This document shows, in pieces, positions 1-54,947 of a stretch of 64,000 bases of DNA. Every line of letters starts with the position of its first letter. Position 1 is the stretch's first letter. The DNA comes from Candidatus Dormiibacterota bacterium (lineage in GTDB: Bacteria; Eisenbacteria; RBG-16-71-46; SZUA-252), in assembly GCA_035635575.1 (NCBI GenBank), contig DASQAV010000131.1, positions 9,860 to 73,859 on the forward strand, in the 5' to 3' direction. The notes under the pieces were generated by a model. It saw only the letters and a list, made by a program, of their open reading frames with translations. It ran no database searches and was not told the origin of the DNA. The position numbers and the translations under genes are program-made.

Positions 1-447
1 CTTGGCGCTCCCGTGGGCTCGGCCCTGGCGGGCTCGAGTGCCTTCATCCAGAAGGCGCGCGCCGCGCGAAAGGTATTTGGCGGCGGCATGCGGCAGGCGG
101 GCATCCTGGCGGCCGCGGCGCTTCACGGAGTGCGGCATCACCGGGAACGGCTCGTGGACGATCACCGGCGCGCGAGGAGGCTGGCCGAGGCGATCGCGGA
201 GATTCCCGGAATCCGCCTCGACCCCGAGAGCGTGCGCACGAACATCGTCATCGCGGACACCGGCGAGGACGAGGCACGAAGGGACGCGCTCCTGCGTGCC
301 ACGGCGGCCGAAGGCGTCCTCTTCGGGCCTGCCGCCGGAGGCCCGGGGAGGTTTCGCGCGGTCACGCACCTCGACGTGGACGATGCGGGGATCGAGCGCG
401 CGATCGCAGTGGTGCGAAGCGCGGCCCGATCGGTTCTCGTCGCGTGA
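1..447 (+). CDS. Low-specificity L-threonine aldolase, C-terminal fragment (5' end lies outside the window)
   Basis: The frame is open from position 1. The translation (…VTHLDVDDAGIERAIAVVRSA) resembles the C-terminus of PLP-dependent threonine aldolases of the LtaE/GLY1 family. The ORF track starts at an internal Met (13), but the reading frame continues upstream to the window edge. Confidence 0.55.
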   Translation, partial: LGAPVGSALAGSSAFIQKARAARKVFGGGMRQAGILAAAALHGVRHHRERLVDDHRRARRLAEAIAEIPGIRLDPESVRTNIVIADTGEDEARRDALLRATAAEGVLFGPAAGGPGRFRAVTHLDVDDAGIERAIAVVRSAARSVLVA

Positions 448-1160
448 GCGAGCCCAGCCCGGGAACGCTCTACCTGGTCGGAACGCCGATCGGCAACGTG
501 GAGGATCTCTCCCCGCGCGCGCAGCGGATCCTGGCCGAGGTGGATCTCATCGCCGCCGAGGACACGCGGCACACGCAGGGGCTCCTCTCGCGGTTCTCGA
601 TCCACCGGCCGCTCGTCTCTTACCACGATCACAACAAGGAGCGGCGCACGCCCGAGCTGGTCGAGAAGCTGCAGGCGGGGAGCTCCGTCGCCATCGTCTC
701 CGACGCGGGCTCGCCGGGGATCTCCGATCCCGCTTTCACGCTCGTGCGCGCCGCGGTCGACGCGGGCGTACCGGTCGTGCCCGTTCCGGGAGCGTCGAGC
801 GCCCTCTGCGCGCTCGAGGTTTCCGGCCTTCCCACCGACCGGTTCGCCTTCGAGGGATTCCTTCCGCGCCGCGCCGCGCGCCGCCGCGCCCGCATCGAGG
901 AGTTGCGCCGGGACCCGCGGACCCTCATCTTCTTCGAGTCGCCGCACCGGCTTCGAGAGAGCCTGCGCGATCTCGCGGAAGCCTGGGGAGAGCGGCCGGC
1001 GTCGATCTCGCGCGAGCTGACCAAGAAATTCGAAGAGACCCGCCGGGGCACGCTGCCTTCGCTCCTCCAGTGGGTAGAGGCAACGCCGCCGCGAGGCGAG
1101 TTCGTGCTGGTGGTGGGGGGCGCTCCGCGCGCCGCGGAAGACCAAGAGGAGGGTGATTGA
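444..1160 (+). CDS. rsmI: 16S rRNA (cytidine1402-2'-O)-methyltransferase RsmI
   Basis: GTG start overlaps the upstream stop. N-terminal LYLVGTPIGNVEDLSPRAQRIL…LIAAEDTRHT and the later SDAG(S)P motif are typical of the tetrapyrrole-methylase-fold RsmI family. Length is about 238 aa. Confidence 0.85.
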   Translation: MSEPSPGTLYLVGTPIGNVEDLSPRAQRILAEVDLIAAEDTRHTQGLLSRFSIHRPLVSYHDHNKERRTPELVEKLQAGSSVAIVSDAGSPGISDPAFTLVRAAVDAGVPVVPVPGASSALCALEVSGLPTDRFAFEGFLPRRAARRRARIEELRRDPRTLIFFESPHRLRESLRDLAEAWGERPASISRELTKKFEETRRGTLPSLLQWVEATPPRGEFVLVVGGAPRAAEDQEEGD

Positions 1161-1810
1161 ACGGGAACTGGAAGGAACAGGGGCGCGAGATCTTCCGGCC
1201 CATCGGGAAATATCTCGCGGCGCGGGGCGTCATGCCGGATCACCTGACGATCCTCGGCGTGGCCCTTTCGCTCCTCGCGGCGATGTTCCTGGGCCGCGGC
1301 TCCTTCTTCGTCGCGGGCCTCGTGCTCCCGCTGGCCGGGCTCTGCGACATCCTGGACGGTGACGTGGCGCGAGAGCGCGGGATCGTGAGCCCCTTCGGCG
1401 CCTTTCTCGATTCCACGCTGGACCGGGTCAGCGAGGGCGCCCTCTACGTCGGGCTCGCCTACTACTACTTCACGCGCAGCCAGACCGCGACCGTCTGGAT
1501 GCGCGGCACGTTCGAGGGAAGCGCCGAGTGGGGAGACGCCGACGGCGCGACGCTGGGAATTCTCGCGCTCGCGATCCTCATCCTCTCCTTCCTCGTGTCC
1601 TACACGCGTGCGCGCGCCGAGGGACTGGGCATGGAGTGCAAGGTGGGGATCATGGAGCGCCCCGAGCGGCTGCTCACGCTCGGTGTGGGCGCCCTTCTGG
1701 GCCACCGATTCATGCCCGGCGTGCTGGGCGTGCTCTTCATTTTGACGCTCGTCACGGTTCTGCAGCGCGTGTATCATGTCCGGAAGCTTACTCAGACGAA
1801 CTCCGCGTAA
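1157..1810 (+). CDS. CDP-alcohol phosphatidyltransferase (phosphatidylinositol-phosphate synthase-like, PgsA1-type)
   Basis: TTG start overlaps the rsmI stop (TTGA). It is a 217-aa multi-TM protein with the CDP-OH phosphotransferase signature D-x2-DG-x2-AR…G…D-x3-D (LCDILDGDVARERG…FLDSTLDRVSEG). The size matches mycobacterial PIP synthase. It sits immediately upstream of the inositol-phosphate synthase. Confidence 0.7.
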   Translation: MNGNWKEQGREIFRPIGKYLAARGVMPDHLTILGVALSLLAAMFLGRGSFFVAGLVLPLAGLCDILDGDVARERGIVSPFGAFLDSTLDRVSEGALYVGLAYYYFTRSQTATVWMRGTFEGSAEWGDADGATLGILALAILILSFLVSYTRARAEGLGMECKVGIMERPERLLTLGVGALLGHRFMPGVLGVLFILTLVTVLQRVYHVRKLTQTNSA

Positions 1811-1889
1811 CGTTTGTCGGGGCACGCCTTAGCTTGGGTCGCGCCCGGATCCTCGAAGCCGTGCCCGTAACATCGGAGGATGGAACCTC

Positions 1890-3059
1890 ATGGGGAAGAT
1901 TCGCGTCGGCATCATCGGCGTAGGGAACTGCGCCTCATCGTTCGTTCAGGGCGTTCACTACTACCGGAATGCCAAGGACTCGGATTTCGTGCCCGGTCTC
2001 ATGCACGTGAACCTGGGCGGATATCACGTGCGCGACATCGAGTTCAGCGCCGCGATCGACATCGACAAGAACAAGGTCGGGAAGGATCTCTCCGAGGCCA
2101 TCTTCACGTGGCCGAACAACACCTACAAGTTCAGCGACGTGCCGCGCCAGGGCGTTCCCGTGGCGCGCGGCATGACGCACGACGGGCTGGGGCAGTACCT
2201 CTCCAAGATCATCCACAAGGCGCCGGGCTCCACCGCGGACATCGTGCGCCTCTTGAAAGACACGAAGACCGACGTGGTCATCAACTACCTGCCGGTGGGC
2301 AGCGAAGAGGCCACGAAGTGGTACGTGGAGCAGATCCTCGAGGCGGGCTGCGCGTTCGTGAACGCCATCCCGGTCTTCATCGCGCGCGAGAAGTACTGGC
2401 AGCGCCGGTTCGAGCAGAAGAAGCTCCCGGTGATCGGCGACGACATCAAGTCGCAGGTGGGCGCCACCATCATGCACCGCGTGCTGGCGCGCCTCTTCCT
2501 GGAGCGCGGCGTGCGGCTGGAGCGGACGAGCCAGCTCAACGTGGGCGGAAACACCGACTTCCTGAACATGCTCGAGCGGTCGCGGCTGGAGTCGAAGAAG
2601 ATCTCCAAGACGAACGCGGTCACCTCGATGCTCACCTACGACATCGGCGAGAAGAACGTCCACATCGGCCCGAGCGACTACGTCGAGTGGCTGGACGACC
2701 GCAAGTGGGCCTACATCCGCCTCGAGGGCCGCACGTTCGGGGACGTTCCGCTCAACGTCGAGCTGAAGCTCGAGGTCTGGGACTCGCCGAACTCGGCGGG
2801 CGTGATCATCGACGCGGTCCGCTGCGCGAAGCTTGCGCTGGACAACGGCCTCTCCGGGGCGCTCATCGGGCCCTCCGCCTACTTCAAGAAATCTCCTCCC
2901 GTCCAGTATCCGGACGACGTGGCCCGGCGGATGGTGGAAGAGTTCATCGAGAAGTACGGCCAGAAGAGGAAGGCGGCGCAGAAGCCCGCGCTCCTGAAGC
3001 GGCCGCGGGCCAAGGCCACGCGCGGCGGCATGAAGAAGGCCGCGCGGAAGAGCGTCTAG
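1890..3059 (+). CDS. ino1: myo-Inositol-1-phosphate synthase (inositol-3-phosphate synthase)
   Basis: 389 aa with an N-terminal Rossmann motif [18 protein letters not shown] and the central conserved block of the bacterial/archaeal MIPS family (…[11 protein letters not shown]…[12 protein letters not shown]…). A Lys-rich C-terminal tail is present. Confidence 0.85.
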
Positions 3060-3075
3060 TCCGCCTCGCCCGCCC

Positions 3076-3726
3076 GTGACGGGACTCCTGATCACCCTGG
3101 AGGGGATCGAGGGGTCCGGCAAATCGACCCAGGCCTCTCTCCTTCACAAGGCTCTCAAAACTCGGCAAATTCCGGTATGCTTGACACGCGAGCCGGGCGG
3201 CTCCCCCATCGCGGAGCGTATCCGCGAGCTGATCTTGCACTCGGGGGATGAGCCCTTGGCTCCCGGGGGGGAATTGCTCCTGTTTCTGGCCGCGCGCGCT
3301 CAAAACGTGGCGCAGACCATCCGTCCCGCCCTCGGCCGCGGCGAAGTCGTTATCTGCGACCGATTCACGGACGCTACCCTGGCGTATCAGGGGGGTGGAC
3401 GGACGATTCCAGAGACATTCCTGACCTCGCTCAACGACTGGGCCACGGGGGGGCTGAAGCCCGCCCGGACCTACCTGCTCGACATCGCGGTAGCCGAGGG
3501 GCTGGAGCGGGCGAGACACCGGCTCGGGGCAAGACCGGACCGGTTCGATCGTGAGAGCCAAGCCTTTTTCGAGGCCGTGCGCGCCCGTTACTTGGAGCTC
3601 GCGCGGCGGGAGCCGGAACGAATTGTGGTGCTACGGGGTACGGATCCAGAGACAAGTCTCGCGCATCAAATCGAGACAGACGTGCAACGGATTCTGAGCG
3701 GCTGGACACCCAAGGTACAGAGGTAA
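3076..3726 (+). CDS. tmk: Thymidylate kinase
   Basis: GTG start. P-loop LEGIEGSGKSTQ, the DRF/TDATLAYQG motif and the LID region match the Tmk family. 216 aa. Confidence 0.85.
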   Translation: MTGLLITLEGIEGSGKSTQASLLHKALKTRQIPVCLTREPGGSPIAERIRELILHSGDEPLAPGGELLLFLAARAQNVAQTIRPALGRGEVVICDRFTDATLAYQGGGRTIPETFLTSLNDWATGGLKPARTYLLDIAVAEGLERARHRLGARPDRFDRESQAFFEAVRARYLELARREPERIVVLRGTDPETSLAHQIETDVQRILSGWTPKVQR

Positions 3727-3733
3727 CCACTCC

Positions 3734-5371
3734 ATGAATCGAAGGCAGATTTTCGCGGTTTGCGTCCTCGTGGTCGCCCTGATCGCGGGTACGTGGGCGG
3801 TCGCTCGAGTGCAGGAATCGAACGACAACACGTATTCCAATATCGAACGGTTCATCCAGGTCCTGACGAAGGTCCGCGACAACTACGTCGAGCCCGTCAG
3901 CAGCGACAAGCTGATGGACGCGGCGATCCGCGGCATGCTCCGGACGCTGGACCCCTACTCGCAGTACCTCGACAAGGACGAGGCGGAGCGCCTCGAGACC
4001 ACGACGCACGGCGCCTTCGGCGGAATCGGCATCTCGATCGGGATGCGCGACCGCTGGGTCACCGTGATCGCCCCCATCGAGGGCACCCCGGCCTGGAAGG
4101 CGGGGATCCTGGGCGGCGACCGGATCATCAAGATCGACGACACCTCCACGGAAGGGCTCTCGCTGGACGACGCGATGAAGAAGATGCGCGGCGAGCGCGG
4201 CACGAAGGTCAAGCTGACCATCTACCGCGAAGGGCGTGAGAAGCCGATGGAGTTCGACATCACGCGCGACATCATCCAGATCAAGAGCGTTCCCTACGCC
4301 GGCATGCTGTCGAACGGCGTCGGGTACGTGCGCCTCTCGAATTTCTCGGAGCGCAGCCGCCAGGAGATGGACCAGGCCTTCGACAAGCTCGAGAAGATGA
4401 ATCCGCACGGAGTGATCATCGATCTCCGCTACAACCCGGGGGGTCTGCTCTCCCAGGCCGTGGAAGTGGCCGAGGAGTTCACGCCGCGCGGGAAGAAGGT
4501 CGTGTATACCCGCGGCCGCGATTCCTCGCAGAACCGCGACTTCTACTCGACCGCGGAGCACACGCACGACAGCTACCCGATCGTGATCCTCGTGAACCAG
4601 TGGACCGCTTCGGCCTCCGAGATCGTCTCGGGCGCCCTGCAAGATCTCGATCTGGGGCTGGTCGTCGGCAAGACGACGTTCGGAAAGGGGCTGGTGCAGA
4701 CGGTGATCCCGCTCACGCGCAGCGTGAAGGGCCCCAAGCTCAAGCTCACGACGGCGAAGTACTACACGCCGAGCGGCCGCTGCATCCAGAAGGACGAGCA
4801 ATTGAAAGACGGCGCCCTTGCCGAAGACGATTCCGATGATTCCGACACCAAGCCCCAGGACTCCGCCGCGGACTCGAAGAAGCCGAAGCCGGAATACCGC
4901 ACCGAGATGGGGCGGGTGGTCTACGGCGGGGGCGGCATCACGCCCGACATCGAGCTCGTGGAGGTGAAGCTTCCGCGCGTGATCGAGGACCTGGAGCAGA
5001 AGCAGGTCTTCTTCAAGTACGCGGTCAAGTACGCGTCCAAGCATCGCGATCCGCCGTCCACCTACGCCCTCACGCCCGGGATCCGGGATGAGTTCATGCA
5101 GCTCCTGCGCGACGAGAAGGTGGAGTTCAACCCCGACTCGCTGGCGGACGCCCGCAAGTGGGTGGACAGCGGTCTCCGGCGCGAGCTGGGCCGCCGCTAT
5201 GGCGGTGAGGAAGAGGCCTACCGGATCGCGCTCGAGGACGACGACCAGGTGAAGTCGGCCGCGGCGCTCTTCGACAAGGCTCCGACGCTTCCGAAGCTCC
5301 TGGCGCTCGCCTCCGAGATGAGCAAGGGCAAGCTACAGACGAATCTCCTGAACAACAAGCCGGTCCGCTAG
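3734..5371 (+). CDS. ctpA: Carboxy-terminal processing protease (S41 family, PDZ-containing)
   Basis: Signal/anchor N-terminus. PDZ segment (GGIGISIG…GTPAWKAGILGGDRIIKID) is followed by S41 catalytic motifs (IDLRYNPGG… and …NQWTASASEIVSGALQD… with the Ser/Lys dyad). 545 aa with an acidic insert. Confidence 0.85.
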   Translation: MNRRQIFAVCVLVVALIAGTWAVARVQESNDNTYSNIERFIQVLTKVRDNYVEPVSSDKLMDAAIRGMLRTLDPYSQYLDKDEAERLETTTHGAFGGIGISIGMRDRWVTVIAPIEGTPAWKAGILGGDRIIKIDDTSTEGLSLDDAMKKMRGERGTKVKLTIYREGREKPMEFDITRDIIQIKSVPYAGMLSNGVGYVRLSNFSERSRQEMDQAFDKLEKMNPHGVIIDLRYNPGGLLSQAVEVAEEFTPRGKKVVYTRGRDSSQNRDFYSTAEHTHDSYPIVILVNQWTASASEIVSGALQDLDLGLVVGKTTFGKGLVQTVIPLTRSVKGPKLKLTTAKYYTPSGRCIQKDEQLKDGALAEDDSDDSDTKPQDSAADSKKPKPEYRTEMGRVVYGGGGITPDIELVEVKLPRVIEDLEQKQVFFKYAVKYASKHRDPPSTYALTPGIRDEFMQLLRDEKVEFNPDSLADARKWVDSGLRRELGRRYGGEEEAYRIALEDDDQVKSAAALFDKAPTLPKLLALASEMSKGKLQTNLLNNKPVR

Positions 5372-5376
5372 GAGCG

Positions 5377-6432
5377 ATGCGTGCCGGGCCGGTCGAGCTT
5401 CCTGGGAATGTCCTTCTTTCGCCGCTCTGCGGCGTGACCGATTCGCCGTTCCGCCGCATCGCGCGGCGGAACGGCGCTGCCATGGTCTTCTGCGAGATGA
5501 CCTCGTCGGATGGCCTGGTGCGCAAGAACCCCAAGACCTTCGAGCTTCTGGAATACCGCCCCGAGGAGCGCCCCATCGGGGCCCAGCTCTGCGGCTCCGA
5601 TCCCGCCGTCATGGCGGAGGCGGCGCGCATATGCGAAGGGCTGGGCTTCGACACCCTCGATCTGAATTACGGCTGTCCGGTCCGCAAGGTCATCGCGCGT
5701 GAGGCCGGCGCCGCCATGCTCACCGATCTCGAGCGTCTGGAGCGCGTCACCGCCGCGGTGGTGAACGCGGTTCAGCTCCCCGTGACGGCCAAGATCCGGA
5801 TGGGCTGGGACAAGACGAACACCAACGCTCCCGAGGTCGCCAAGGTGCTCGAGCGCTCGGGCGTGAGGTGGGTCACGGTGCACGCACGCGCCCGCTCCGA
5901 GAAGTTCACCGGACAGGCGCACTGGGAAGTGATCGCCGAGGTGAAGGCCAACACGACGCTTCCCGTGATCGGAAACGGCGACGTGAAGACCCCCGAGGAT
6001 GCGCTCCGGATGATCCAGGAGACGGGCTGCGACGGCGTGATGGTGGGCCGGGGCTCGTTCGGAAATCCCTGGCTCTTCGCGCGCGCGCACCGCCTCCTGA
6101 ACGGAGACGATCCGGGCCCCGAACCCACGCCGCGAGAGCGCATCGCGACCGCGATCGGCCATCTCCACGATCTCGCGGAGAAGAAGGGGGACTATGCCGC
6201 GACGCTCATGCGGAAGCACGTTGCCTGGTACGTCCGAGGCCTCTACGACAATTCCAGCCTCTGCCGCGAGGTGAACCATGCCGCAACGCCGGCCGAGGTG
6301 GAGTCCCTTCTCCTGAACTACCTGGAACGAATCGAGAGCGCTCCCGAGCCCCAGATCCCAGAGCCCGATTCGCCGGACGCCGGGTGGAACGGCGGGGGCG
6401 TGGACGCTCATGGATCCTGCGCGGCTTCGTAA
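5377..6432 (+). CDS. dus: tRNA-dihydrouridine synthase (DusB-like)
   Basis: TIM-barrel Dus motifs are present: LSPLCGVTDSPFRRI, DLNYGCPVRKV, the conserved K and H, and C-terminal helical-domain residues. About 351 aa. Confidence 0.8.
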   Translation: MRAGPVELPGNVLLSPLCGVTDSPFRRIARRNGAAMVFCEMTSSDGLVRKNPKTFELLEYRPEERPIGAQLCGSDPAVMAEAARICEGLGFDTLDLNYGCPVRKVIAREAGAAMLTDLERLERVTAAVVNAVQLPVTAKIRMGWDKTNTNAPEVAKVLERSGVRWVTVHARARSEKFTGQAHWEVIAEVKANTTLPVIGNGDVKTPEDALRMIQETGCDGVMVGRGSFGNPWLFARAHRLLNGDDPGPEPTPRERIATAIGHLHDLAEKKGDYAATLMRKHVAWYVRGLYDNSSLCREVNHAATPAEVESLLLNYLERIESAPEPQIPEPDSPDAGWNGGGVDAHGSCAAS

Positions 6433-7201
6433 GCTTCTCACCGGAGTACGGCGCGGACGCATCACCACGAGCCAGGCGCTCGAGGCGATCGCCCATCTTC
6501 CCTTCGAATCCATCGGCGCGGGAACCGTGGACCACCATCGCGGCATTCGCCAAGCGCTCCCCGAAGTGATCCTCTGCCAGGGAAAGACCAAAGCGCAGTG
6601 TGTCTCGATCGCGCGCTCCATCGTGTCGCGGAGCGGGCGCCTGCTCGCCACCCGTGCCAGCGAGGAGCAGGCCCGCGCCCTGATGGAGGCGTTCGAGGGC
6701 GAGGCGCGATGGAACGAGGCCGCCCGGACCGTGACGGTGGAGCGCGCTCGCCGGAATGGATCCCGGTCGCGCCGTTCCCGGCGCACGGGACATGTGCTCG
6801 TCGTGAGCGCCGGGACCTCGGATCTTCCCGTGGCGGAGGAAGCCGCGGTGACCCTCGATTTCATGGGCGTGCCCGTGGACCGGGTGTACGATGCGGGCGT
6901 TGCCGGGATCCACCGCCTGCTGAAGCACGTCAAGGCGCTCCGTCAGGCCACCGCCATCGTCGTGGTGGCCGGGATGGAAGGGGCGCTCGCGAGCGTGGTC
7001 GGCGGCATCACCGACCGGCCGGTGATCGCGGTGCCCACCAGCGCGGGCTACGGCGCTTCCTTCGGCGGCCTGGCGGCGCTCCTCGCGATGCTCAATTCCT
7101 GCGCCGCGGGGGTCACCGTGGTGAACATCGACAACGGCTTCGGCGCGGGATACGCGGCGGGTGTGATCGCGCTTCGTTCCCGTTCGGGAGGCAGGTCGTG
7201 A
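6410..7201 (+). CDS. larB: Nickel-pincer cofactor biosynthesis protein LarB (PurE-like P2CMN synthase)
   Basis: An N-terminal LarB-specific domain is followed by the PurE-like fold (HVLVVSAGTSDLPVAEEA…GVAGIHRLL…VVVAGMEGALASVVGG…IAVPTSAGYG). Its start overlaps the end of dus, and its stop overlaps the larC start. Confidence 0.7.
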   Translation: MDPARLRKLLTGVRRGRITTSQALEAIAHLPFESIGAGTVDHHRGIRQALPEVILCQGKTKAQCVSIARSIVSRSGRLLATRASEEQARALMEAFEGEARWNEAARTVTVERARRNGSRSRRSRRTGHVLVVSAGTSDLPVAEEAAVTLDFMGVPVDRVYDAGVAGIHRLLKHVKALRQATAIVVVAGMEGALASVVGGITDRPVIAVPTSAGYGASFGGLAALLAMLNSCAAGVTVVNIDNGFGAGYAAGVIALRSRSGGRS

Positions 7202-8379
7202 GCATCGTCTATTTCGACTGCGTCGGCGGCGCGAGCGGCGACATGATCCTGGGCTCCCTGGTCGCGGCCGGCGCTCCGCTCCCCGAGATCGAGCGGAATC
7301 TCCGCGCCCTGCCGCTCCCGGGAATCGCCCTCTCGTCCACGGTCGTGAAGCGCCACGGCTTCGACGCCCTGCTCTTACAGGTAAGCACCGAGGAGACCAA
7401 GGCGCACCGCCACTACACGGAGATCCGCCGCATGCTGGAGGGAGGGGCGCTTCCTCCGCGCGTGCTGCGCCGCTCGCTCGCCGCCTTCGATCTCCTGGGC
7501 CGGTGCGAGGCCGAGGTGCACGGCACCTCGCTCGAGAAGGTCCACTTCCACGAGGTGGGAGCTCTGGACTCGATCGTGGACATCGTGGGCACGGCATGGG
7601 CGCTCGAGATCCTGAACGTGGAGCGCTGTCACGCTTCCGTGATCCCCCAGGGACGCGGCTTCGTGAAGGCGGCCCATGGTACGCTGCCCATCCCGGCGCC
7701 CGCGACGGTTCGAATCTTAGAGGGGGTTCCCGTGCGCATGACCGAGATCGAGGCGGAGCTGACCACGCCCACGGGCGCCGTGCTCCTGCGCACGCTGTGC
7801 GACACGATCGGCGAGCCGATCGGGATCCGGCCCCGCCGCACCGGCGTCGCGACTGGAACGATGGACTTCGCCGAGCGCCCGAACCTCATGCGCGCCATGC
7901 TGGGCGAGCCCCTGGGCGCTCAGGATCGAGGCTCGGTGGAGGTGTTCGAGACGACGATCGACGACATGAATCCCCAGCTCTACGGGCACCTCACGGAAAG
8001 CCTCTTCCTGAGCGGCGCGCGGGAGGTGTACCTGACGCCGGTCCAGATGAAGAAGGGGCGCCCGGGAGTGCTGGTGACGGCGATCTGCGACTCGGGCAAG
8101 GCCCACGCCGTGCTGGAGCGGCTCTTCAAGGAATCGACCACGATCGGCGTGCGGGTGCGTCACGAAGGACGCGTGGAGCTGGCGCGCTCGGTCGCCGAGG
8201 TGCAGACACCGCTCGGGATGATCCGAGTGAAGACCGCCATCCTGCCCACGGGCGAGGAGCGGCGCGTGCCCGAGTACGAGGACGTGAAGCGGATCGCACA
8301 ATCTCTCGGGCGCCCTTTGGTCGAAGTCATGGACGAGGTCCGCTCCTTCCTCCACGAGAGCGCGCGGACCACCGTGTAG
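7198..8379 (+). CDS. larC: Nickel insertion protein LarC (DUF111 family)
   Basis: GTG start at 7198 overlaps the larB stop. The N-terminus SIVYFDCVGGASGDMILGSL is the hallmark of the LarC/DUF111 family. The ORF track gives a longer 5'-extended ORF (6598) that overlaps larB; I prefer the 7198 start. Confidence 0.7.
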   Translation: MSIVYFDCVGGASGDMILGSLVAAGAPLPEIERNLRALPLPGIALSSTVVKRHGFDALLLQVSTEETKAHRHYTEIRRMLEGGALPPRVLRRSLAAFDLLGRCEAEVHGTSLEKVHFHEVGALDSIVDIVGTAWALEILNVERCHASVIPQGRGFVKAAHGTLPIPAPATVRILEGVPVRMTEIEAELTTPTGAVLLRTLCDTIGEPIGIRPRRTGVATGTMDFAERPNLMRAMLGEPLGAQDRGSVEVFETTIDDMNPQLYGHLTESLFLSGAREVYLTPVQMKKGRPGVLVTAICDSGKAHAVLERLFKESTTIGVRVRHEGRVELARSVAEVQTPLGMIRVKTAILPTGEERRVPEYEDVKRIAQSLGRPLVEVMDEVRSFLHESARTTV

Positions 8380-10118
8380 TGATCCGCCTCGAGGCGGTCT
8401 CGTACACGACACCGTCCTCTCCAGGGGGAGGAGCGGGCCGGACCCTCCTCGGCCCCGTCGAGTTTTCCGCGTTCCCCGGCTCGAGCCACCTTCTCCTCGG
8501 TCCCAACGGCTCCGGAAAGACCACGCTCATCCGCATCGTCGCGGGGCTCCGCGAGCCCTCCAGCGGCCGCTACCTCCTCGAGCGCGAAGAAGTGCGCGCG
8601 GGGAAGGAAGGGCGCTCTCTCTGGCCCACGGTCGCGGCACTCTTCGAGGAGCCCGACCCGCAATTTCTATCCGACACGGTGGAGGCGGAGATCGCGTTCG
8701 GGCTCGAGTCGCTGGCCATCTCCCCGCTCGAGATCCGCGCGCGAACGGAGGAAGCGCTCCGCGCGTTTTCCCTCCTGGCATTTCGGCAGAGGGCGCCCCA
8801 GAGCCTGAGCGCGGGAGAGAAGGCGCGCACCCTTCTCGCCGCCGCTCTCGCCGGGAACCCGCGCTGCATTCTCCTCGATCAGTCGCTGGCGCATCTCGAC
8901 CCCGGCTCGCGCCGCGAGCTGGAGGGCTCGGTGGTGAGGGACGCGATCGCCGGGGACCGCGCGGTCATCCGCACCCACCAGGAGGCCGATCCGCCCTTCC
9001 TCGGGGAAACCCTTCACGTGATCGAGGGAGGCTCCCTTCGCTCCCTCTCCCAGCTCACCCCGAAAGGGGTGATCGACGGAGCGCGCGTGCCGTATCCCCT
9101 GGCGCTTCGCGTTTCGGCGCTCCTCGCGTCGGGGCGGCGATGGTCCGGGCCGCTCGCCGCGGACGTGGAGCCCCTGGAGCGCGCGCTGGACCAGGCCCTG
9201 GGACCGGAGGAGGAATCGCGGGCCGCACTTCGTCCCGAAGCCCCGGCACGGGCGCCGTCCGAGGCGCGGCGCGGCCCGGTGGCGATCGCGATGAACGGCG
9301 TGGCCTGGTCGCCGTCCGGCGCGCGCGGCGCTCCGGTGCTCCACGGCGTGGACCTCGAGATCGGACCCGGCGAGATCGTCGCGGCGATCGGCAGGAGCGG
9401 CAGCGGCAAGACCACGCTCCTCAAGCTCGCGGCCGGCCTCGTGGCTCCAAGCGGAGGAACGATCCATCGCGAGCCGCCGGTCGTGGGAAGGGTGCGGCCG
9501 GTGGCGCTCGCGCTCGAGTACCCCGAGCGGCAGCTCTTCGGACGCACGGTGCTCGAGGATGTGACCGCGCTTCTCTGGATCGAGGGAATTCCGGCGGAGG
9601 AGCGCGAGCGGAGCGCGCGCCGCGCGATGACGGAAGTGGGGTTGGATCCCGACCGCTTTGCGGGGAGGTTCCCTGGGTCCTTGAGCGAAGGAGAGAAGCG
9701 GCGCGCCGCGCTGGCCGGGGTGCTCATCGAGCCGCCCCAGCTTCTCCTCCTCGACGAGCCCACGGCGGGACTGGATCCCGAGGGGAGGCGCGCTCTGGTG
9801 CGGGTTCTCGATTCGCTCCGATCGCGCGGGCGGAGCGTCCTCCTCGCGAGCCACGACCTGGCGTTCGTGGGCTCGGTGGCGGATCGCGTGTGTCTGCTCG
9901 GAAGGGAGGGGGAAGGTCCCGGCTCGATGCTCGCCCTGAGGGGAACCGCGGAAATCTTCCGGGATGACGCGCTCCTCATGCGCGCGGGCCTCCCGTCTCC
10001 CGACTTCGTGCGTCTCGAGCGCGTGCTCCGCGCTCGCGGCCTCCTCAAGCCGGTTCCGGTCAAAGACGACGCGGCGCTGCTCGACGCTCTCGTAACCGAT
10101 TCACTGGCTGCTCTTTAG
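8379..10118 (+). CDS. Fused double ABC-type ATPase (ECF/CbiO-like energy-coupling ATPase duplicate)
   Basis: GTG at 8379 overlaps the larC TAG stop. Two complete nucleotide-binding domains are present: Walker A GPNGSGKTT and GRSGSGKTT, signature motifs LSAGEKAR and LSEGEKRR, and Walker B LLDQ/LLDEPTAGLD. The long 5' part of the tracked ORF (from 7503) overlaps larC in another frame and is not coding. Confidence 0.7.
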   Translation: MIRLEAVSYTTPSSPGGGAGRTLLGPVEFSAFPGSSHLLLGPNGSGKTTLIRIVAGLREPSSGRYLLEREEVRAGKEGRSLWPTVAALFEEPDPQFLSDTVEAEIAFGLESLAISPLEIRARTEEALRAFSLLAFRQRAPQSLSAGEKARTLLAAALAGNPRCILLDQSLAHLDPGSRRELEGSVVRDAIAGDRAVIRTHQEADPPFLGETLHVIEGGSLRSLSQLTPKGVIDGARVPYPLALRVSALLASGRRWSGPLAADVEPLERALDQALGPEEESRAALRPEAPARAPSEARRGPVAIAMNGVAWSPSGARGAPVLHGVDLEIGPGEIVAAIGRSGSGKTTLLKLAAGLVAPSGGTIHREPPVVGRVRPVALALEYPERQLFGRTVLEDVTALLWIEGIPAEERERSARRAMTEVGLDPDRFAGRFPGSLSEGEKRRAALAGVLIEPPQLLLLDEPTAGLDPEGRRALVRVLDSLRSRGRSVLLASHDLAFVGSVADRVCLLGREGEGPGSMLALRGTAEIFRDDALLMRAGLPSPDFVRLERVLRARGLLKPVPVKDDAALLDALVTDSLAAL

Positions 10119-18511: not shown

Positions 18512-20196
<1,685 letters not shown>

Positions 20197-21509
20197 GGTC
20201 CTCGATCCCGCGCGCGGCATCGACCGCGTCCAGGATCTCTGGATCGTGGACGGGAAGATCGCCGGCCTGGGGGAGGACGCCCCCGCGGACGTGCGGTCCG
20301 ACCGCGCCGCCGAGGTGCTGTCGGTGAAGGGTGCCGTGATCTGCCCCGGGCTCGTGGACATCCACGTGCACCTGCGCGAGCCGGGACAGGAGGAGAAGGA
20401 GACGATCGAATCGGGAACCCTGGCCGCGGCGCGCGGCGGGTTCACCACGGTCGCCTGCATGCCGAACACCACCCCGCCGCTCGATGACCGGCCGAGGATC
20501 GAGTACGTGATCCGGCGCGCGCGCGAGAGCGGGCACGCGCGCGTCCATCCGATCGCGGCGGTGACCCGCGGACAGATGGGCGAATCGCTGACCGAGATCG
20601 AGGAGCTGGTCGAGGCGGGAGCGGTCGCGATCTCCGACGACGGAAAGCCGGTGCGGAACGCGGAGATCATGCGCCGCGCGCTCGAGCTGACCCGCCCCCT
20701 GGGGATTCCGGTCATCCAGCACGCCGAGGATCCCGATCTCAAGGGGGACGGCGTCATGCACGAGGGTTGGACGTCCACGCGGCTCGGGATGAAGGGAATC
20801 CCGGACGCGGCGGAATCGGTGATCGTCGCGCGTGACGCGCTGCTCGCCGAGCTGACGGGCGGGCACGTGCACGTGGCGCACGTGAGCGCGGGGCGCTCCA
20901 CGGAGATCATCCGGCGCGCCAAGGCCCGCGGCATCCGCATGACCGCGGAGACAGCGCCTCATTACCTGCTCCTCACGGATGAGGCGGTCGAGGGCTTCGA
21001 TCCCCGCACCAAGATGAACCCGCCGCTCCGGAGCGCCAAGGATCGCGAGGCGCTGCTCGAGGCGGTGGTGGACGGCACCCTCGATTGCCTCGCCACCGAC
21101 CACGCTCCCCATACCGACTTCGAGAAGGACTCCGATTTCGACTCCGCCCCCTTCGGGATCGTGGGGCTGGAGACGGCTCTGGGGATCTACCTCAAGGCGC
21201 TCGTCGAGCCGAAACTCCTGTCCTTGCCGGAACTGATCATGCGGATGACGGTGAATCCGCTCCGCGTGCTCGGGCTTCCCGGCGGGACGCTGGAGGCGGG
21301 CGCGCCCGCGGACGTGACGGTGTTCGACCCCTCACGGCGATGGACGGTCCGGGCCGAGGAATTCGCGTCGAAGGGCCGGAATACTCCGTTTCAGGGGTGG
21401 GAGCTTCCGGGACAGGTGCTGGTGACGATGATGGGGGGCCGGGTCACCTATCGCGCCGAGACCCTGCTGGCTGGCGCCCGATAGCGGGCTCCGGGGTTCT
21501 AGTGGTACC

Positions 21510-23267
21510 ATGGCGCCGTTCATGCGAACCCCGCACCCCAGATCGCCGGGACCCCAGATTCTCGTCGCACTCCTCCTCGTCACCTTCACCGGTTGCGCGT
21601 ACTACAACACGTTTTATCTCGCCAAGCGGTACATGCGCGAAGGCCAGAAGGCCCAGGACCGCTTCCTCCTGGACACGCCCGCCCCGGAGGCCGTGGGGAA
21701 GTACGACGGCGTCATCCGGCAGTGCGCCAAGATCCTGGTCGACTATCCCAAGAGCAAGTGGGTGGACGACGCGGTCTATTACATGGGCGCGGCGCTCTAT
21801 GGAAAGGGCGATTATCCGGCGGCGATCAAGAAATTCGGCGAGCTTCGGGCCAGCTTCCCCAAGAGCCCTTACGTGCCCGACTCCAAGCTGATGGAGGCGC
21901 TCTCGCTCTACCGGCGGAAGGAATACGTCGAGGCGGAAACGATGTTCCGCCAGGTCGAGACCCAGCATCCCAACCTCAAGCGCAAGTGGGAGCTCTACTA
22001 CTACGGAGCCGAAGACGAGGTGGGACTCAGGAATTATCCCGCCGCCCTCGCCTGGTACAAGCGCGCCGCGGAGACCGCCCAGAGCAAGCGGCAGCGCGCG
22101 AGAGCTCTGAGGCGCATGGGGGACGCGCACATGGCGAGCAAGGACTACCAGAGCGCGCAGGCGGACTACGCACAGGCGCTCAAGAACGAGGATCTCGGAG
22201 CCCGCCGGCTGGACCTGGCGCTCCAGCGAGGCGATGCGCTGGAACAGCTCAAGCATTACGACGAGGCGCTCTCCTGGTACGACAGCTGGAGGCCCTTCGC
22301 GGTGAACGAGAAGCGCGAGGGTGAGATTCTCATCCGGCGCTACGCGCTCCAGACGGTGATGGGGCGCACTCATGAGGCGATCGAGGGATACCAGGCGCTG
22401 GTGACGCAGTACCCGCGCAGCGCCATCGCCTACGAGTCGCAATTCCGGCTGGGATATCTCTATGAGTCGCAGCTGGGGGATTTCGACGCGGCCGGCCGCG
22501 AGTACGAGAAGCTGAAGGCGGAGCCCGCTCCCTCCGAATTTCAGGTGCAGGCCTCGCGGCGCGCCGCGAACCTCGCGACGATCAAGCAGTACCGATCCAC
22601 GCTCCTCTCGGACACGACGCAGGCGCGCGCGCGGGCGGCGTTCCTGCTCGCGGAGATCTACTATTTCCAGATCGAGCGGGTGGACTCGGCCATGCTCCAG
22701 TACGAGGCCGTGGAGCGCGGATTTGGCTCAAGCCCGTACGCGGCCAAGGCCGCCTTCGCCAGGCTCTGGATCCAGACCCACGACAAGGGAGACACGCTGG
22801 CCGCCGCCGCCCTCACCGACACGATCGCGAGCCGCTACCGCAGGACGCGGTACGCCGAGTCCGCGCTCTATCTCTGGCGCCAGTGGAGCGGGCGGAGCGA
22901 CGCGAGGACGGCGCTCCTGGATTCCCTGGTCGCGAATCCGGATACGACCGTGATCCGCGAGCGCCTGGAGCAGCCCGAGCCTCAGGTGAATATTTCCCCG
23001 GCGGACAGCACACGGCCGGTGATCTTCGAGACCCCGGGGCAGATCGCGGAGCGGGCGCGCCAGGATTCGCTCGCCGCGTACACCCGCGCGCTCTACCGCG
23101 CGAGGCGCCAGGGGCTGCCGCTGCCGCCTCCGCTCCCTCGGGTCACGCACCCCGCCGACGCGGACACGTCCCAAACCAGGAGCCCCGCGGCTCCGAAGCC
23201 GCCCGAACCGACAACCGGAGCGCCGCCCGACACGACCACCGGACCCACCATCGGACCCTCGCGATGA
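21510..23267 (+). CDS. TPR-repeat lipoprotein (BamD/YbgF-like repeat architecture, extended Pro-rich C-terminus)
   Basis: Signal peptide with lipobox LVTFTG|C. Multiple TPR units. C-terminal low-complexity P/T-rich tail. Its stop overlaps the pyrK ATG (ATGA). Confidence 0.6.
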   Translation: MAPFMRTPHPRSPGPQILVALLLVTFTGCAYYNTFYLAKRYMREGQKAQDRFLLDTPAPEAVGKYDGVIRQCAKILVDYPKSKWVDDAVYYMGAALYGKGDYPAAIKKFGELRASFPKSPYVPDSKLMEALSLYRRKEYVEAETMFRQVETQHPNLKRKWELYYYGAEDEVGLRNYPAALAWYKRAAETAQSKRQRARALRRMGDAHMASKDYQSAQADYAQALKNEDLGARRLDLALQRGDALEQLKHYDEALSWYDSWRPFAVNEKREGEILIRRYALQTVMGRTHEAIEGYQALVTQYPRSAIAYESQFRLGYLYESQLGDFDAAGREYEKLKAEPAPSEFQVQASRRAANLATIKQYRSTLLSDTTQARARAAFLLAEIYYFQIERVDSAMLQYEAVERGFGSSPYAAKAAFARLWIQTHDKGDTLAAAALTDTIASRYRRTRYAESALYLWRQWSGRSDARTALLDSLVANPDTTVIRERLEQPEPQVNISPADSTRPVIFETPGQIAERARQDSLAAYTRALYRARRQGLPLPPPLPRVTHPADADTSQTRSPAAPKPPEPTTGAPPDTTTGPTIGPSR

Positions 23268-24076
23268 ATCTCGTCGGGTGTTCGGTGGTCGAGAACCGCG
23301 AGATCACGCCCGGTAATTTCCTCCTCACGCTCAAGGTTCCCCGCGGATTCGCGCGGCCCGAGCCCGGACAGTTCGTGCATCTGCGCGTCTCTCCGGAATC
23401 GGAGCCCCTGCTCCGGCGGCCCTACAGCCTGGAAGGCTTCGTCGAGCGCGGGAAGATCCGCGCCGTGCGCATCTACTACTCCGTGGTGGGCCGAGGCTCC
23501 CGGGTGCTCGCGTCGCAGCCCAAGGGTCAGGAGCTGGATCTCATCGGCCCCCTGGGCCTGGGCTTCACGCCGCGGCCGCGCCGCGCGCCCATCCTCGTCG
23601 CCGGCGGGCGCGGCGTGGCCCCCTTGCTCTTCTTTGCCCGGAGGCTCCGCGAGAAGAAGCGCCCCTTTCTCTTCCTCTTCGGCGCGCGCTCCGCACGCGA
23701 GCTCTACGGAGTCCGCGAGATCCGAGGCGGAAGGATCCACCTCGCCACCGACGACGGGTCGGTCGGCTATCACGGAAGCGTGCTCGATCTCCTGAAGCAA
23801 CAGTGGGAGGCAGGGGAGCACACGCGGCTCACGGCGGAGATCTTCACGTGCGGCCCGCACGGACTCCTCCACGAGGTCGCGGCGTTCGCCGGGGAGCTCG
23901 GGATCCGCTGCGAGGCCTCGCTGGAAGGGCCGATGGCCTGCGCCGTCGGGGCCTGCCGCGGATGTCCCGTGCCGCTCCTCTCGGGCGCCGACGGAGACGG
24001 CGGGCGCTATCCCGCGATGTGCATCGAGGGGCCGGTCATGGACGCCACGATCGTGGACTGGGAGCGGCTGCCGTGA
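23264..24076 (+). CDS. pyrK: Dihydroorotate dehydrogenase electron-transfer subunit (FAD/NAD-binding, 2Fe-2S)
   Basis: Ferredoxin-reductase-type fold with R-x-Y-S FAD motif (RRPYSL) and C-terminal Cys cluster CAVGACRGC…C for 2Fe-2S. Start taken at ATG 23264; the tracked ORF extends upstream through the TPR gene in another frame. Confidence 0.8.
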   Translation: MNLVGCSVVENREITPGNFLLTLKVPRGFARPEPGQFVHLRVSPESEPLLRRPYSLEGFVERGKIRAVRIYYSVVGRGSRVLASQPKGQELDLIGPLGLGFTPRPRRAPILVAGGRGVAPLLFFARRLREKKRPFLFLFGARSARELYGVREIRGGRIHLATDDGSVGYHGSVLDLLKQQWEAGEHTRLTAEIFTCGPHGLLHEVAAFAGELGIRCEASLEGPMACAVGACRGCPVPLLSGADGDGGRYPAMCIEGPVMDATIVDWERLP

Positions 24077-25032
24077 CGCCCTCGCCGTCGCTCACGGTCC
24101 GTGTCGGATCGCTCACGCTCCGGAATCCCGTGCTCGTGGCGTCCGGGATCATTGGGTATGGAATCGAGTACGAGCGCCTGGTGGACCTGAGCGCGATCGG
24201 CGGAATCGTGACCAAGACCGTGACGCGGCACGCCCGCGCCGGGAACCCGCCGCCGCGCGTCGTGGAAACTCCGGCGGGGATGCTGAACTCGATCGGAATC
24301 GAGAATCCGGGGCTCGAGGGATTCCTCGAGCTCAAGGTGCCCATCCTCCGGGAGCTTCCCTGCGCCGTGATCGTCTCGGTGGAGGGAGAGGACGTCCGGG
24401 AGTTCTGCGAGCTGGTCGAAGGGGTGAGCGGCTCCGGGGTGGCGCACGCGATCGAGGTGAACATCTCCTGCCCGAACGTGGGCCCGCACGGCCTCCGGTA
24501 CTCGACCGACGCCGACATGGCGCGCGAGGTCATGAGCGCGATCCGCCCACTCACCAGGCTGCCGCTCATCGCGAAGCTCACGCCCAACGTGACCCGGATC
24601 GCCGAGATCGCCGTGGCATGCGAGTCTTGTGGAGCCGACGCGGTCTCGCTCGTGAACACGTTCGTGGGGATGGCGGTCGATTCCCGGACGCGGAAGCCCA
24701 TCCTGGGCACGGTGGTGGGCGGCCTCTCGGGACCGGCCATCAAGCCTCTCGCCCTGGCCAAGGTGTGGGAGGTGGTGCAGGCGGTGGACGTCCCCGTGAT
24801 CGGAATGGGCGGGATCACGCATCCCCGGGACGCGATCGAGTTCCTCCTCGTGGGCTCGACCGCCGTCCAGGTGGGCACCGCGCTCTTCTCGAATCCGGAG
24901 CTGGCGGAGGCGTGCGTCGCGGAGATCGAGGCCTACGCGCGACGGGCCGAGGTTCCCTCCGTGGCGGACCTCATCGGAGCGCTGGACGTTCCCGCCGAGC
25001 GCGGGATGATCCGCGCCGGGAAAATCCTCTGA
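24073..25032 (+). CDS. pyrD: Dihydroorotate dehydrogenase catalytic subunit (class 1B)
   Basis: GTG overlaps the pyrK stop. Conserved LRNPVLVASG, NSIG(I)EN(P)G, catalytic Cys loop NISCPNV and GGI…D(A) FMN-binding motifs. Confidence 0.85.
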   Translation: MTPSPSLTVRVGSLTLRNPVLVASGIIGYGIEYERLVDLSAIGGIVTKTVTRHARAGNPPPRVVETPAGMLNSIGIENPGLEGFLELKVPILRELPCAVIVSVEGEDVREFCELVEGVSGSGVAHAIEVNISCPNVGPHGLRYSTDADMAREVMSAIRPLTRLPLIAKLTPNVTRIAEIAVACESCGADAVSLVNTFVGMAVDSRTRKPILGTVVGGLSGPAIKPLALAKVWEVVQAVDVPVIGMGGITHPRDAIEFLLVGSTAVQVGTALFSNPELAEACVAEIEAYARRAEVPSVADLIGALDVPAERGMIRAGKIL

Positions 25033-50146: not shown

Positions 50147-50208
50147 GCCTTGACGCAGGGAGTAGGGCGCAGCCTTGCAGGCCGGAACAAAACAAGGGGT
50201 GGGGAACA

Positions 50209-51890
50209 TGACGCAGCGTCCAGATCCGTCTCAACCCAGAGACCCCAGCGCGTCCGAAATGCCCGAGATCGACCCTCTTGAGCGGCTCAGCAGGGGCTTG
50301 ACGCAGTGGGAGCGGGAACTGTTGCAGGAGCCACGGTCGCCCTCGCGGCCGCGTACCGTAACCGACCTCGATCGCATCACGCACGTCCTCCAGGCAGCGC
50401 GATCCGTCACCGGCACCCTCGATATCAATGAGCTCCTGATCCGCGTCGTCGACGCCGTGATCCAGGTGGCCGAAGCCGACCGCGGATTCCTCATGCTCAT
50501 GCACGAGGACGGAAAGCTCCGCTTCGAGGTCGCGCGCAACAAGGACGAGACCACCCTTCCTTCCGACGAATTCCAGATTTCCTGGGGCATCGCCGAGGAA
50601 GCGGCGCACCGCCGGGAAACGGTCTGGGTCGCCGACGCGATGGGCTCCTCGCTCTTCGCGGAGCGGAAGAGCGTTCGCGAGCTCTCCCTCCGCACCGTGG
50701 TCGCGCTCCCGATCCTGAGCAGCGGGCGCGTGCTCGGCGTGCTCTACATCGATTCCCATTCCGTCACGCACGAATTCACTCCGGACACCATCACGCTGCT
50801 CGAGGCATTCGGGGCGCTCTGCGCCGTGGCGCTCGAGAACGCGCGCATGCACGAGGCGCTGCGGGATTCCAAGAGCCGCCTGGAGATCGAGAACCAGAAT
50901 CTGCGGCGCGCCCTCAAAGAGGATTTCCGCTACGGGCTCCTGGTGGGGCGCAGCCCGAAGATGCTCCGGGTGATCGAATTGCTGGAGAAGGTGATCCCGA
51001 CCCAGGTCTCGGTGCTCGTCCAGGGAGAGACCGGCACGGGGAAGGAGCTGATCGCTCGGGCGATCCACATGAACGGTCCGCGCCGCGAAAAGAGCTTCGT
51101 CGCGGTGAACTGCGGCGCCCTTCCCGAGAACCTCCTCGAGAGCGAGCTCTTCGGCTACAAGAAGGGCGCCTTCACGGGCGCCACGGAGGACCGGCCCGGG
51201 CTCTTCGAGGCCGCCGATGCCGGCACGATCTTCCTCGATGAGGTGGGGGAGATGCCCGCGTCTCTGCAAGTGAAGCTCCTCCGCGTCCTGCAAGACGGCC
51301 ACATCCGCCGCGTGGGCGACACGGTCTCGCGCAAGGTGGACGTGCGCCTGGTCGCCGCGACCAACCGCGACCTCAAGGCCGAGGTCGAGGGCGGCCGGTT
51401 CCGGCAGGATCTCTTCTTTCGTATCAACGTCGTGCCGCTCGAGCTGCCGGCGCTCCGCGAACGAGGGGAGGACGTGCTCCTCCTGGCGCAGCACTTCCTC
51501 GATCAATTCGCCAAGCAGCAGCAGCGGAAGCTCCGCGGCCTGACCCCGGAGTCGCGCGAGCTCCTGCTCCGGCATCCCTGGCCGGGGAACGTGCGCGAGC
51601 TGGAAAACGCCATGGCACGCGCCGTGGCGCTGGCCGACGAGGGCGCCTCGCTGGAGCCTTCGCTCTTCGGGCTCGGGGCGCCCGTCACGCGCCGCTGGGA
51701 CGGGCAGCACACGCTGCGGGAGACCCTCGACGCGGTCGAGGCGGATACGATCCGCGAGGCGCTACGGCAGTGCGACCAGAATGTTTCACGCGCGGCACGC
51801 GCGCTGGGCGTGAGCCGGCAGCACCTTCACAATCGGATGAACTCGCACGGCATTCGCCGCTCGCGGGTCATGAACGAGCCGGCCGCATAG
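50209..51890 (+). CDS. Sigma54-dependent transcriptional activator (GAF sensor domain, AAA+ sigma54-interaction domain, Fis-type HTH)
   Basis: Walker [15 protein letters not shown] loop ([10 protein letters not shown]), Walker B/ESELFG, arginine finger region, C-terminal HTH ([19 protein letters not shown]). N-terminal GAF-like domain. Start at ATG 50209 with SD-like aaggggtgggg. Confidence 0.85.
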
Positions 51891-54946: not shown

Positions 54947-54947
54947 C

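Follow-up and report, generated by a model that had tools for sequence, protein, structure and literature searches.

Bacterial inositol lipids were long held to be limited mostly to the Actinobacteria and a few spirochaetes, and have recently been extended to the Bacteroidetes (PMC9246714). The underlying two-step chemistry, catalysed by a myo-inositol-1-phosphate synthase (MIPS) and a phosphatidylinositol phosphate (PIP) synthase (PIPS), has been established in mycobacteria (PMC4634129) and in Bacteroides thetaiotaomicron, where both genes are clustered (BT_1522-BT_1526) in a Gram-negative-type bacterium and phosphatidylinositol (PI) is formed via a PIP intermediate (PMC9246714). Related transferases include the archaetidylinositol-phosphate synthases (AIPS; NF040950) of archaea and the IPCT/DIPP synthases (AF0263, 4MND; AF2299, 4O6M) of hyperthermophiles. 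Here, a gene pair of comparable content is described in a stretch of 64,000 nucleotides (hereafter the window; contig DASQAV010000131.1 of assembly GCA_035635575.1, positions 9,860 to 73,859) from a member of the Eisenbacteria, a group named candidate phylum Eiseniibacteriota at the NCBI. The pair consists of a CDP-alcohol phosphatidyltransferase of 217 aa with a TTG start (1157..1810; PF01066, E = 4e-16) and an inositol-3-phosphate (myo-inositol-1-phosphate) synthase of 389 aa (1890..3059; PF01658, E = 4e-38, 130.3 bits against a cut-off of 27), and probably represents a two-gene module for de novo inositol phospholipid synthesis. Gene positions were derived from a six-frame list of open reading frames (ORFs) and identities from Pfam and NCBIfam profiles, and all genes of the array (13..6432) are on the + strand. 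The gene order of the initial annotation, with a 217-aa transferase overlapping the rsmI stop codon upstream of MIPS, was recovered at these positions and the identities of the products were confirmed by both profile collections.

The mycobacterial and actinobacterial system of Ino1 and PgsA1/PIP synthase (Rv2612c; 6H53, 5D91, 6WM5) shares with the window pair the transferase fold, the catalytic signature, the acceptor-pocket residues and, as predicted from homology, the conversion of CDP-diacylglycerol (CDP-DAG) and inositol-1-phosphate to PIP. It differs in that the window transferase is only 29-36 % identical to the actinobacterial PIP synthases and carries an extra loop, while the two window genes are mutually adjacent in an rsmI-tmk housekeeping array rather than part of a pgsA1-patA-pimA operon, with neither PimA nor PatA encoded nearby. 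Unlike the B. thetaiotaomicron cluster, the window contains no visible homologue of the PgpA-like PIP phosphatase (BT_1525) or the inositol-phosphoceramide synthase (BT_1522).

The inositol-1-phosphate synthase

The product of the downstream gene shares 64 % identity over 351 aa with Mycobacterium tuberculosis Ino1 (1GR0; 502 bits, E = 8e-150), as against 187 bits for the nearest non-MIPS paralogue among Protein Data Bank (PDB) entries, the five-membered-cyclitol-phosphate synthase 6K96. By homology it is a true MIPS, as the initial annotation had held, and not a member of another NAD-binding family. Its score on the actinobacterial mycothiol-type equivalog TIGR03450 (552.5 bits) falls below the cut-off of 638, which puts the protein just outside that equivalog, as expected for another phylum.

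The alignment with 1GR0 stops at residue 353, and the remaining ~36 aa (354-389; 2949..3056) form a polybasic C-terminal tail. It occurs in 14 related loci, where it closes with the conserved G[LM]K[KR]AAR[KR]S[VA], and is absent from M. tuberculosis Ino1. It may bind membrane or nucleic acid.

Family placement of the transferase

The transferase was compared with profiles of the characterized CDP-alcohol phosphotransferases and with the PDB. The highest profile scores were obtained with the AIPS model NF040950 (158.9 bits, in two stretches; cut-off 180) and the actinobacterial PIPS model NF045883 (155.1 bits; cut-off 170), followed by the BT_1523-type PIPS model of Bacteroides (99.2 bits; cut-off 350), the DIPP synthase model NF041135 (41.8 bits; cut-off 580), the pgsA models TIGR00560 (34.8 bits; cut-off 109.1) and NF008090 (20.2 bits; cut-off 304) and the pssA model (30.3 bits; cut-off 107). 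Sequence searches against the PDB retrieved Renibacterium RsPIPS (1e-24), M. tuberculosis PgsA1 (7e-22) and M. kansasii PIPS (7e-18) ahead of AF2299 (2e-9) and PgsA (2e-3). Similarly, the first fourteen ranks of a Foldseek comparison with the PDB were all occupied by PIP synthases (TM-score 0.66-0.80; 29-36 % identity), with AF2299/DIPPS (20 % identity), PgsA (18 %; TM-score 0.51-0.55) and PssA at lower ranks. The profile-based placement among PIP synthase, DIPP synthase and PgsA called for by the initial annotation thus favours the inositol-phosphate-accepting PIPS/AIPS side, and the protein does not cluster with the phosphatidylglycerophosphate synthases. It was derived from the profile scores, the order of the structural matches and the diagnostic residues rather than from a phylogenetic tree.

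These comparisons indicate membership of the inositol-phosphate-accepting PIPS/AIPS clade. As the protein falls below every curated cut-off, it would belong to a large sublineage that is biochemically uncharacterized; the window protein, the other Eisenbacteria versions and ten of the nearest 50 %-cluster representatives all have scores intermediate to the curated families. Relatives are numerous: the count of cluster representatives is 64 with a limit of E ≤ 1e-30 and reaches 2590 with one of E ≤ 1e-10. The name PIP synthase is a well-supported inference rather than a formal family call, because the cut-offs of all three characterized equivalogs exceed the scores of the protein.

The possibility that the transferase is an ordinary PgsA or phosphatidylserine synthase, placed incidentally beside a MIPS that supplies inositol for a non-lipid use, is extremely improbable. 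Many database homologues, including many with JGI annotations, do carry the name 'CDP-diacylglycerol--glycerol-3-phosphate 3-phosphatidyltransferase', and the pair is surrounded by unrelated housekeeping genes. The JGI name nevertheless appears to be a generic one applied at the level of the whole family, as PIP synthase is the name given to other proteins of the same cluster. The pgsA and pssA scores given above lie far under their cut-offs, the PgsA structures rank below all inositol-phosphate enzymes, the arginine pair specific to the inositol-phosphate pocket is invariant, and MIPS remains the neighbouring gene in 18 loci in spite of divergent spacers and flanks.

The acceptor pocket and lipid groove

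The CDP-alcohol signature DxxDGxxAR-x8-GxxxDxxxD is complete in the transferase (D64-x2-D67-G68-x2-A71-R72-x8-G81-x3-D85-x3-D89; 1346..1423), occurs nowhere else in the six frames of the window, and is invariant in 32 homologues. The acceptor-pocket and lipid-groove residues S148, R151, R168-P169-E170-R171 and R204 (1598..1768) were identified by alignment to the M. tuberculosis enzyme (MtPIPS), in which S132, K135, P153, R155 and R195 correspond to S148, R151 (a lysine to arginine exchange), P169, R171 and R204, respectively. In MtPIPS, the arginine pair R155/R195 binds the phosphate moiety of the inositol phosphate, with contributions from S132 and K135 (Clarke et al., PMC4634129), while P153 lines the acyl-chain groove and stacks on an acyl chain of CDP-DAG (PMC4634129). 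The counterpart of the R155/R195 pair in RsPIPS is R153/R191. S148, R151, P169, R171 and R204 are invariant in 32 close homologues, and S148, R151, R168, R171 and the equivalent of R204 remain so in 30 relatives with a mutual identity of only 32-46 %.

The AlphaFold2 model of the transferase (pLDDT 81.8; pTM 0.77) comprises one juxtamembrane and six transmembrane (TM) helices (residues 4-22, 27-47, 50-74, 79-110, 131-156, 168-181 and 186-214). The catalytic signature is located on TM2-TM3, and the groove residue P169, the counterpart of MtPIPS P153, on TM5. A lineage-specific loop of ~20 aa lies between TM3 and TM4 (aa 110-130; 1484..1546), where it splits both the PDB and the profile alignments into two stretches. 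W125, D127 and G130 within this loop (WGDxDG) are invariant. The loop is absent from a Streptomyces PIP synthase and is shorter or different in two more distant relatives (loci L020 and L022), and residues 110-125 are modelled with a pLDDT of <50. By analogy with the RsPIPS topology, it would lie on the periplasmic side, at a distance from the active site. The initial annotation had emphasized that the protein is of the same size as PgsA1. The 6h53 chain is indeed also 217 aa in length, but the match is coincidental, since the window protein includes the loop insertion and PgsA1 does not.

The six-helix fold and class I CDP-alcohol phosphotransferase family are also shared with IPCT/DIPP synthase, along with the inositol-1-phosphate acceptor and frequent linkage to MIPS, and the initial annotation had offered di-myo-inositol phosphate (DIP) as an alternative product of the pair. 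In such a pathway, the transferase would be a DIPP synthase acting on soluble CDP-inositol and the product would be a compatible solute rather than a lipid. A MIPS gene beside a CDP-alcohol transferase gene is the layout of DIP loci too, and the conserved arginines would be compatible with a DIPP synthase, which also takes inositol-1-phosphate (as may be deduced from PMC4634129). The 217-aa protein is, however, a single-domain one, with no cytidylyltransferase domain found in it, in the neighbouring genes or in the whole 64 kb; its DIPPS score reaches 41.8 bits against the required 580, and AF2299 and AfDIPPS, at only 20 % identity, are outranked by every PIP synthase. Hyperthermophiles are the known producers of DIP, in contrast to the soil and groundwater origin of the metagenome-assembled genomes (MAGs) that contain the loci closest to the pair. 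The profile score, the structural ranking and the lack of a cytidylyltransferase in protein and window led to the rejection of the DIP option, to which hardly any credence can be given.

The nature of the lipid donor is a further point on which the transferase may be compared with AIPS, which accepts inositol-1-phosphate and matches the window protein as well as the bacterial PIPS model does. An AIPS-like enzyme would use an ether-linked or isoprenoid CDP-alcohol (CDP-archaeol or CDP-alkylglycerol) instead of CDP-DAG, the presumed donor of the window enzyme, and so form an ether inositol lipid. The AIPS score is marginally above that for PIPS, and the AIPS model likewise outscores the actinobacterial PIPS model for the relatives at loci L020 and L022 and for ten further representatives. 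The difference of ~4 bits is within noise, is the sole positive support for an ether donor, and comes with a score below the AIPS cut-off. The AIPS model is also unspecific, in that a true Streptomyces PIP synthase, used as a control, scores 143 bits on it (270.8 bits on the PIPS model). Furthermore, the host is a bacterium (of a candidate phylum), no prenyltransferase or ether-lipid gene was seen within the 64-kb window, and P169, the counterpart of the MtPIPS residue that stacks on the acyl chain, is conserved. An AIPS-like donor is thus considered very unlikely.

Conservation of the gene pair and its relatives

A scan of one genome per species yielded 22 related loci, the closest of which (95 % identity) is found in a Candidatus Eisenbacteria MAG, and most of the others bear the same label. 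A few are labelled as Binatia, Latescibacterota, Omnitrophota, Hyphomicrobiales or Bacteroidota; as the loci concerned have the same synteny, noise in binning or labelling is the probable source of these names. When the 22 loci were searched by tblastn with the window proteins, the order ltaE-rsmI-transferase-MIPS-tmk-ctp-dusB was seen to be kept as far as each contig extends. MIPS directly follows the transferase in 18/19 Eisenbacteria-type loci (transferases 61-95 % identical), with the nineteenth locus ending before the position of MIPS. In the distant loci among these, transferase identity falls to 61-69 % and that of MIPS is still 85-98 %. In five pairwise comparisons, the ratio of non-synonymous to synonymous substitution rates (dN/dS) of the transferase gene was 0.09-0.30 and that of the MIPS gene 0.08-0.16, and both genes are under purifying selection. 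A pseudogene or a mis-called start of the transferase was ruled out by the conserved N-terminus, the interchangeable TTG, GTG and ATG starts at the same position and the low dN/dS.

The nearest relatives from outside the Eisenbacteria, at ~42-50 % identity with the window protein, are uncharacterized PIPS-like transferases encoded in MAGs of the Desulfobacterota type. These have in common with it the invariant acceptor residues and a place in the intermediate sublineage below all curated cut-offs, but lack the Eisenbacteria loop, are not followed by MIPS, and have a NUDIX hydrolase next to or fused with the transferase and often a YhdP/AsmA-like protein. In Desulfatiglandaceae, 'Deltaproteobacteria' and Thermodesulfobacteriota MAGs (L027, 8001-9115; L028, 8001-9172; L029, 8001-9131; L031/L032, 8001-12479), the NUDIX gene always directly follows and overlaps the transferase stop codon. 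In some cases (P0382, P0318 and P0351), the transferase carries the NUDIX domain as a C-terminal fusion. A YhdP/AsmA-like lipid-transport gene (~1125 aa) is next in three of the Desulfobacterota-type loci. The mycobacterial pgsA/patA/pimA operon also ends in a NUDIX domain, and the recurrent PIPS-NUDIX link may be a pointer to a missing step of bacterial PI synthesis.

A transferase homologue with 42 % identity is encoded in a 'Proteobacteria' MAG (L020, 30-3658), directly after two ORFs for lipid-A-type acyltransferases and a GT4 glycosyltransferase. By analogy, this set mirrors mycobacterial pgsA1/patA/pimA and hints at glycolipids resembling phosphatidylinositol mannosides (PIMs) outside the Actinobacteria.

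Proposed pathway and the fate of PIP

In the proposed pathway, MIPS would cyclize cytoplasmic glucose-6-phosphate to L-myo-inositol-1-phosphate in an NAD+-dependent reaction. The six-helix transferase would then accommodate CDP-DAG in a membrane-open groove, with inositol-1-phosphate bound in the pocket lined by R171 and R204, with D64, D67 and D85 holding the metal and D89 acting as the base, and phosphatidyl transfer would yield PIP and CMP. A phosphatase encoded elsewhere could convert PIP to PI, which would serve as a membrane lipid itself or as an anchor for further decoration. The substrates and product of the MIPS and transferase steps are inferred from strong homology, the diagnostic residues and the conserved linkage. 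The dephosphorylation step and the identity of the final lipid, whether PI, PIP or a derivative, are inferred and not shown, because the 64 kb hold no candidate for a PIP phosphatase.

Several observations weigh against a role of the pair in inositol phospholipid synthesis. The transferase lies below the cut-offs of all characterized equivalogs (AIPS, PIPS and BT_1523 type), as do ten of the nearest 50 %-cluster relatives, and its equal AIPS and PIPS scores leave the lipid donor undecided by sequence alone. The sublineage appears to be biochemically uncharacterized. At the distant Eisenbacteria locus L022 (41 % identity), the arrangement is HU-transferase-tmk-larB-larC, without MIPS; therefore either the link between the transferase and tmk is older than the MIPS adjacency or MIPS has been lost there. 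Pfam analysis of ~56 ORFs, including low-scoring ones in the gaps, and six-frame motif scans detected no PIP phosphatase (PgpA-like, PAP2, HAD, NUDIX or alpha/beta-hydrolase) in the window, nor an IMPase, an NTP-transferase/cytidylyltransferase or a second CDP-alcohol transferase. No CDP-DAG synthase or PI-modifying enzyme adjoins the pair. A literature search combining Eisenbacteria and inositol returned nothing relevant. The missing phosphatase is not unusual, because its mycobacterial counterpart, which was unidentified according to PMC4634129, is still represented only by a candidate, EphE, named in a July 2026 preprint (10.64898/2026.07.15.738315). The window and the mycobacterial system are thus alike in this respect.

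PIP may also be made as proposed and then be retained as such, or serve as the precursor of glycosylated anchors or inositol phosphoceramide, comparable to the mycobacterial PIMs and the phosphoinositol dihydroceramide (PI-DHC) of Bacteroides, rather than being converted to bulk PI. Such a fate, which would refine rather than contradict the role proposed for the pair, is in keeping with the lack of a phosphatase gene in or near it, with the use of PI as a precursor of further lipids in the characterized systems, and with the acyltransferase and GT4 genes ahead of the L020 relative, a pattern resembling the mycobacterial one. It is nonetheless fairly unlikely, as the window genes next to the pair include none for a GT4, an acyltransferase or an AUR1-like protein, and those for GT4 enzymes at 35-47 kb are part of a typical Wzx/Wzy polysaccharide locus.

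Gene junctions and expression

The transferase gene appears to be translationally coupled to the preceding rsmI. At the junction (1146..1160; GAGGAGGGTGATTGA), a Shine-Dalgarno-like purine-rich element (GAGGAGGG; 1146-1153) precedes the TTG start codon (1157-1159), which shares the tetranucleotide TTGA with the TGA stop codon of rsmI (1158-1160), giving a 4-nt overlap. An independent gene caller, applied to public contigs, also gives the 217-aa product and this overlap. An NTGA overlap with a TTG, GTG or ATG start (TTGA/GTGA/ATGA) is kept in 12/13 related loci, and the L016 locus has an ATGA that is differently placed. The distance of about 80 nt between transferase and MIPS reported in the initial annotation was measured as 79 nt (1811..1889), with a GGAGG ribosome-binding site (1875-1879) situated 10 nt before the ATG. 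Related loci have spacers of between 1 and 89 nt, with the ribosome-binding site as the sole conserved element. A regulatory RNA or terminator within it was discounted on the basis of a fold z-score of -0.21 relative to shuffled sequence, the lack of an Rfam match and the variable length among relatives. No Rfam match was found in a scan of the whole window, and the numbers of promoter-like (one) and terminator-like sites (five) were the same as expected from shuffled sequences. Placement in a housekeeping array and translational coupling to rsmI suggest that the pair would be constitutively expressed rather than induced by stress.

Other genes in the window

The array begins at the window edge with the 3' part of a threonine-aldolase-like gene (ltaE; Beta_elim_lyase, PF01212, E = 8e-19; 13..447). 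It is probably the first gene of the co-directional array; on a public contig (L023), a full-length ltaE gene of 330 aa sits after a divergently oriented gene, and ltaE is kept upstream of rsmI in 18 related loci. The rsmI gene (444..1160) encodes a 16S rRNA (cytidine1402-2'-O)-methyltransferase (TIGR00096, 237.9 bits against a cut-off of 167.9; PF00590). The protein is short, with 238 aa that cover positions 2-227 of the 275-position TIGR00096 profile, and is without the C-terminal part of the E. coli-type enzyme. Downstream of MIPS, the array continues with tmk (dTMP kinase; 3076..3726; TIGR00041, 172 bits against a cut-off of 83), the gene of an S41 C-terminal processing peptidase (ctp; 3734..5371) and dusB (5377..6432), the latter two recognized by Pfam/NCBIfam profiles and synteny.

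The G + C content of the window is 64-71 % and long spurious ORFs are abundant. Two long antisense ORFs (629-1825 and 1935-3122) were dismissed as by-products of the 69 % G + C content, as the + strand frames hold the third-position signal (G + C fraction of 0.89 for the transferase and 0.93 for MIPS) and all of the homology.

Beyond the array are genes for a LarB-like protein with an AIR-carboxylase fold (6410-7201), the nickel insertion protein LarC (7210-8379) and a protein with two ABC ATPase domains (8388-10118). Neither LarA nor LarE was seen near larB-larC, and the order tmk-larB-larC also occurs at the distant locus L022. Scattered pyrimidine-related genes between 18620 and 25032 encode a phosphoribosyltransferase (18620-19195), a dihydroorotase-like amidohydrolase (20165-21484) and a dihydroorotate dehydrogenase (within 23317-25032), with a gene for a TPR/YfiO-like protein (21510-23267) among them. 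A large polysaccharide biosynthesis locus (25472-50121) includes four NAD-dependent sugar epimerase/dehydratase genes and genes for a UDP-glucose dehydrogenase, two Wzx-type flippases, two Wzy-type polymerases, a Wzz/GNVR chain-length protein, at least five GT4 and one GT2 glycosyltransferases, a methyltransferase, an initiating sugar transferase (Bac_transf) and a WecA-like GT4-family transferase. It is followed by the gene of a sigma-54 activator with a GAF domain (50175-51890). The region 52941-55832 encodes a DUF6754 protein (402 aa, E = 9e-112), followed by ORFs of 266 and 305 aa that have a good coding signal and no Pfam match.

Implications for the Eisenbacteria and the PIPS family

No new chemistry is involved, and the two enzyme families and the clustering of their genes were known before. 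What is new is the host phylum, the membership of a biochemically uncharacterized sublineage, the housekeeping-operon context, and the transferase loop and MIPS tail. A far-reaching extension would hold that an inositol phospholipid is a constitutive, phylum-wide core membrane lipid of the Eisenbacteria, made via a third synthase lineage equidistant from actinobacterial PIPS and archaeal AIPS. The periplasmic WGDxDG loop and the MIPS tail would make the pair a membrane-bound unit, with the tail tethering the synthase to the anionic membrane and inositol-1-phosphate being fed directly to the transferase. This extension as a whole is decidedly doubtful.

With a MIPS/PIP-synthase pair located in a housekeeping operon, this soil phylum, which has never been cultured, joins the lineages in which inositol lipids may be formed. 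Public pipelines name most such relatives PgsA or a generic family member. The conserved Eisenbacteria pair, together with the 2590 cluster representatives, suggests that the inositol lipid capacity of environmental bacteria is under-annotated. The pair thereby provides a lipid biomarker hypothesis for the Eisenbacteria in soils, as well as a compact two-gene cassette from the PIPS sublineage that could be used for assays.

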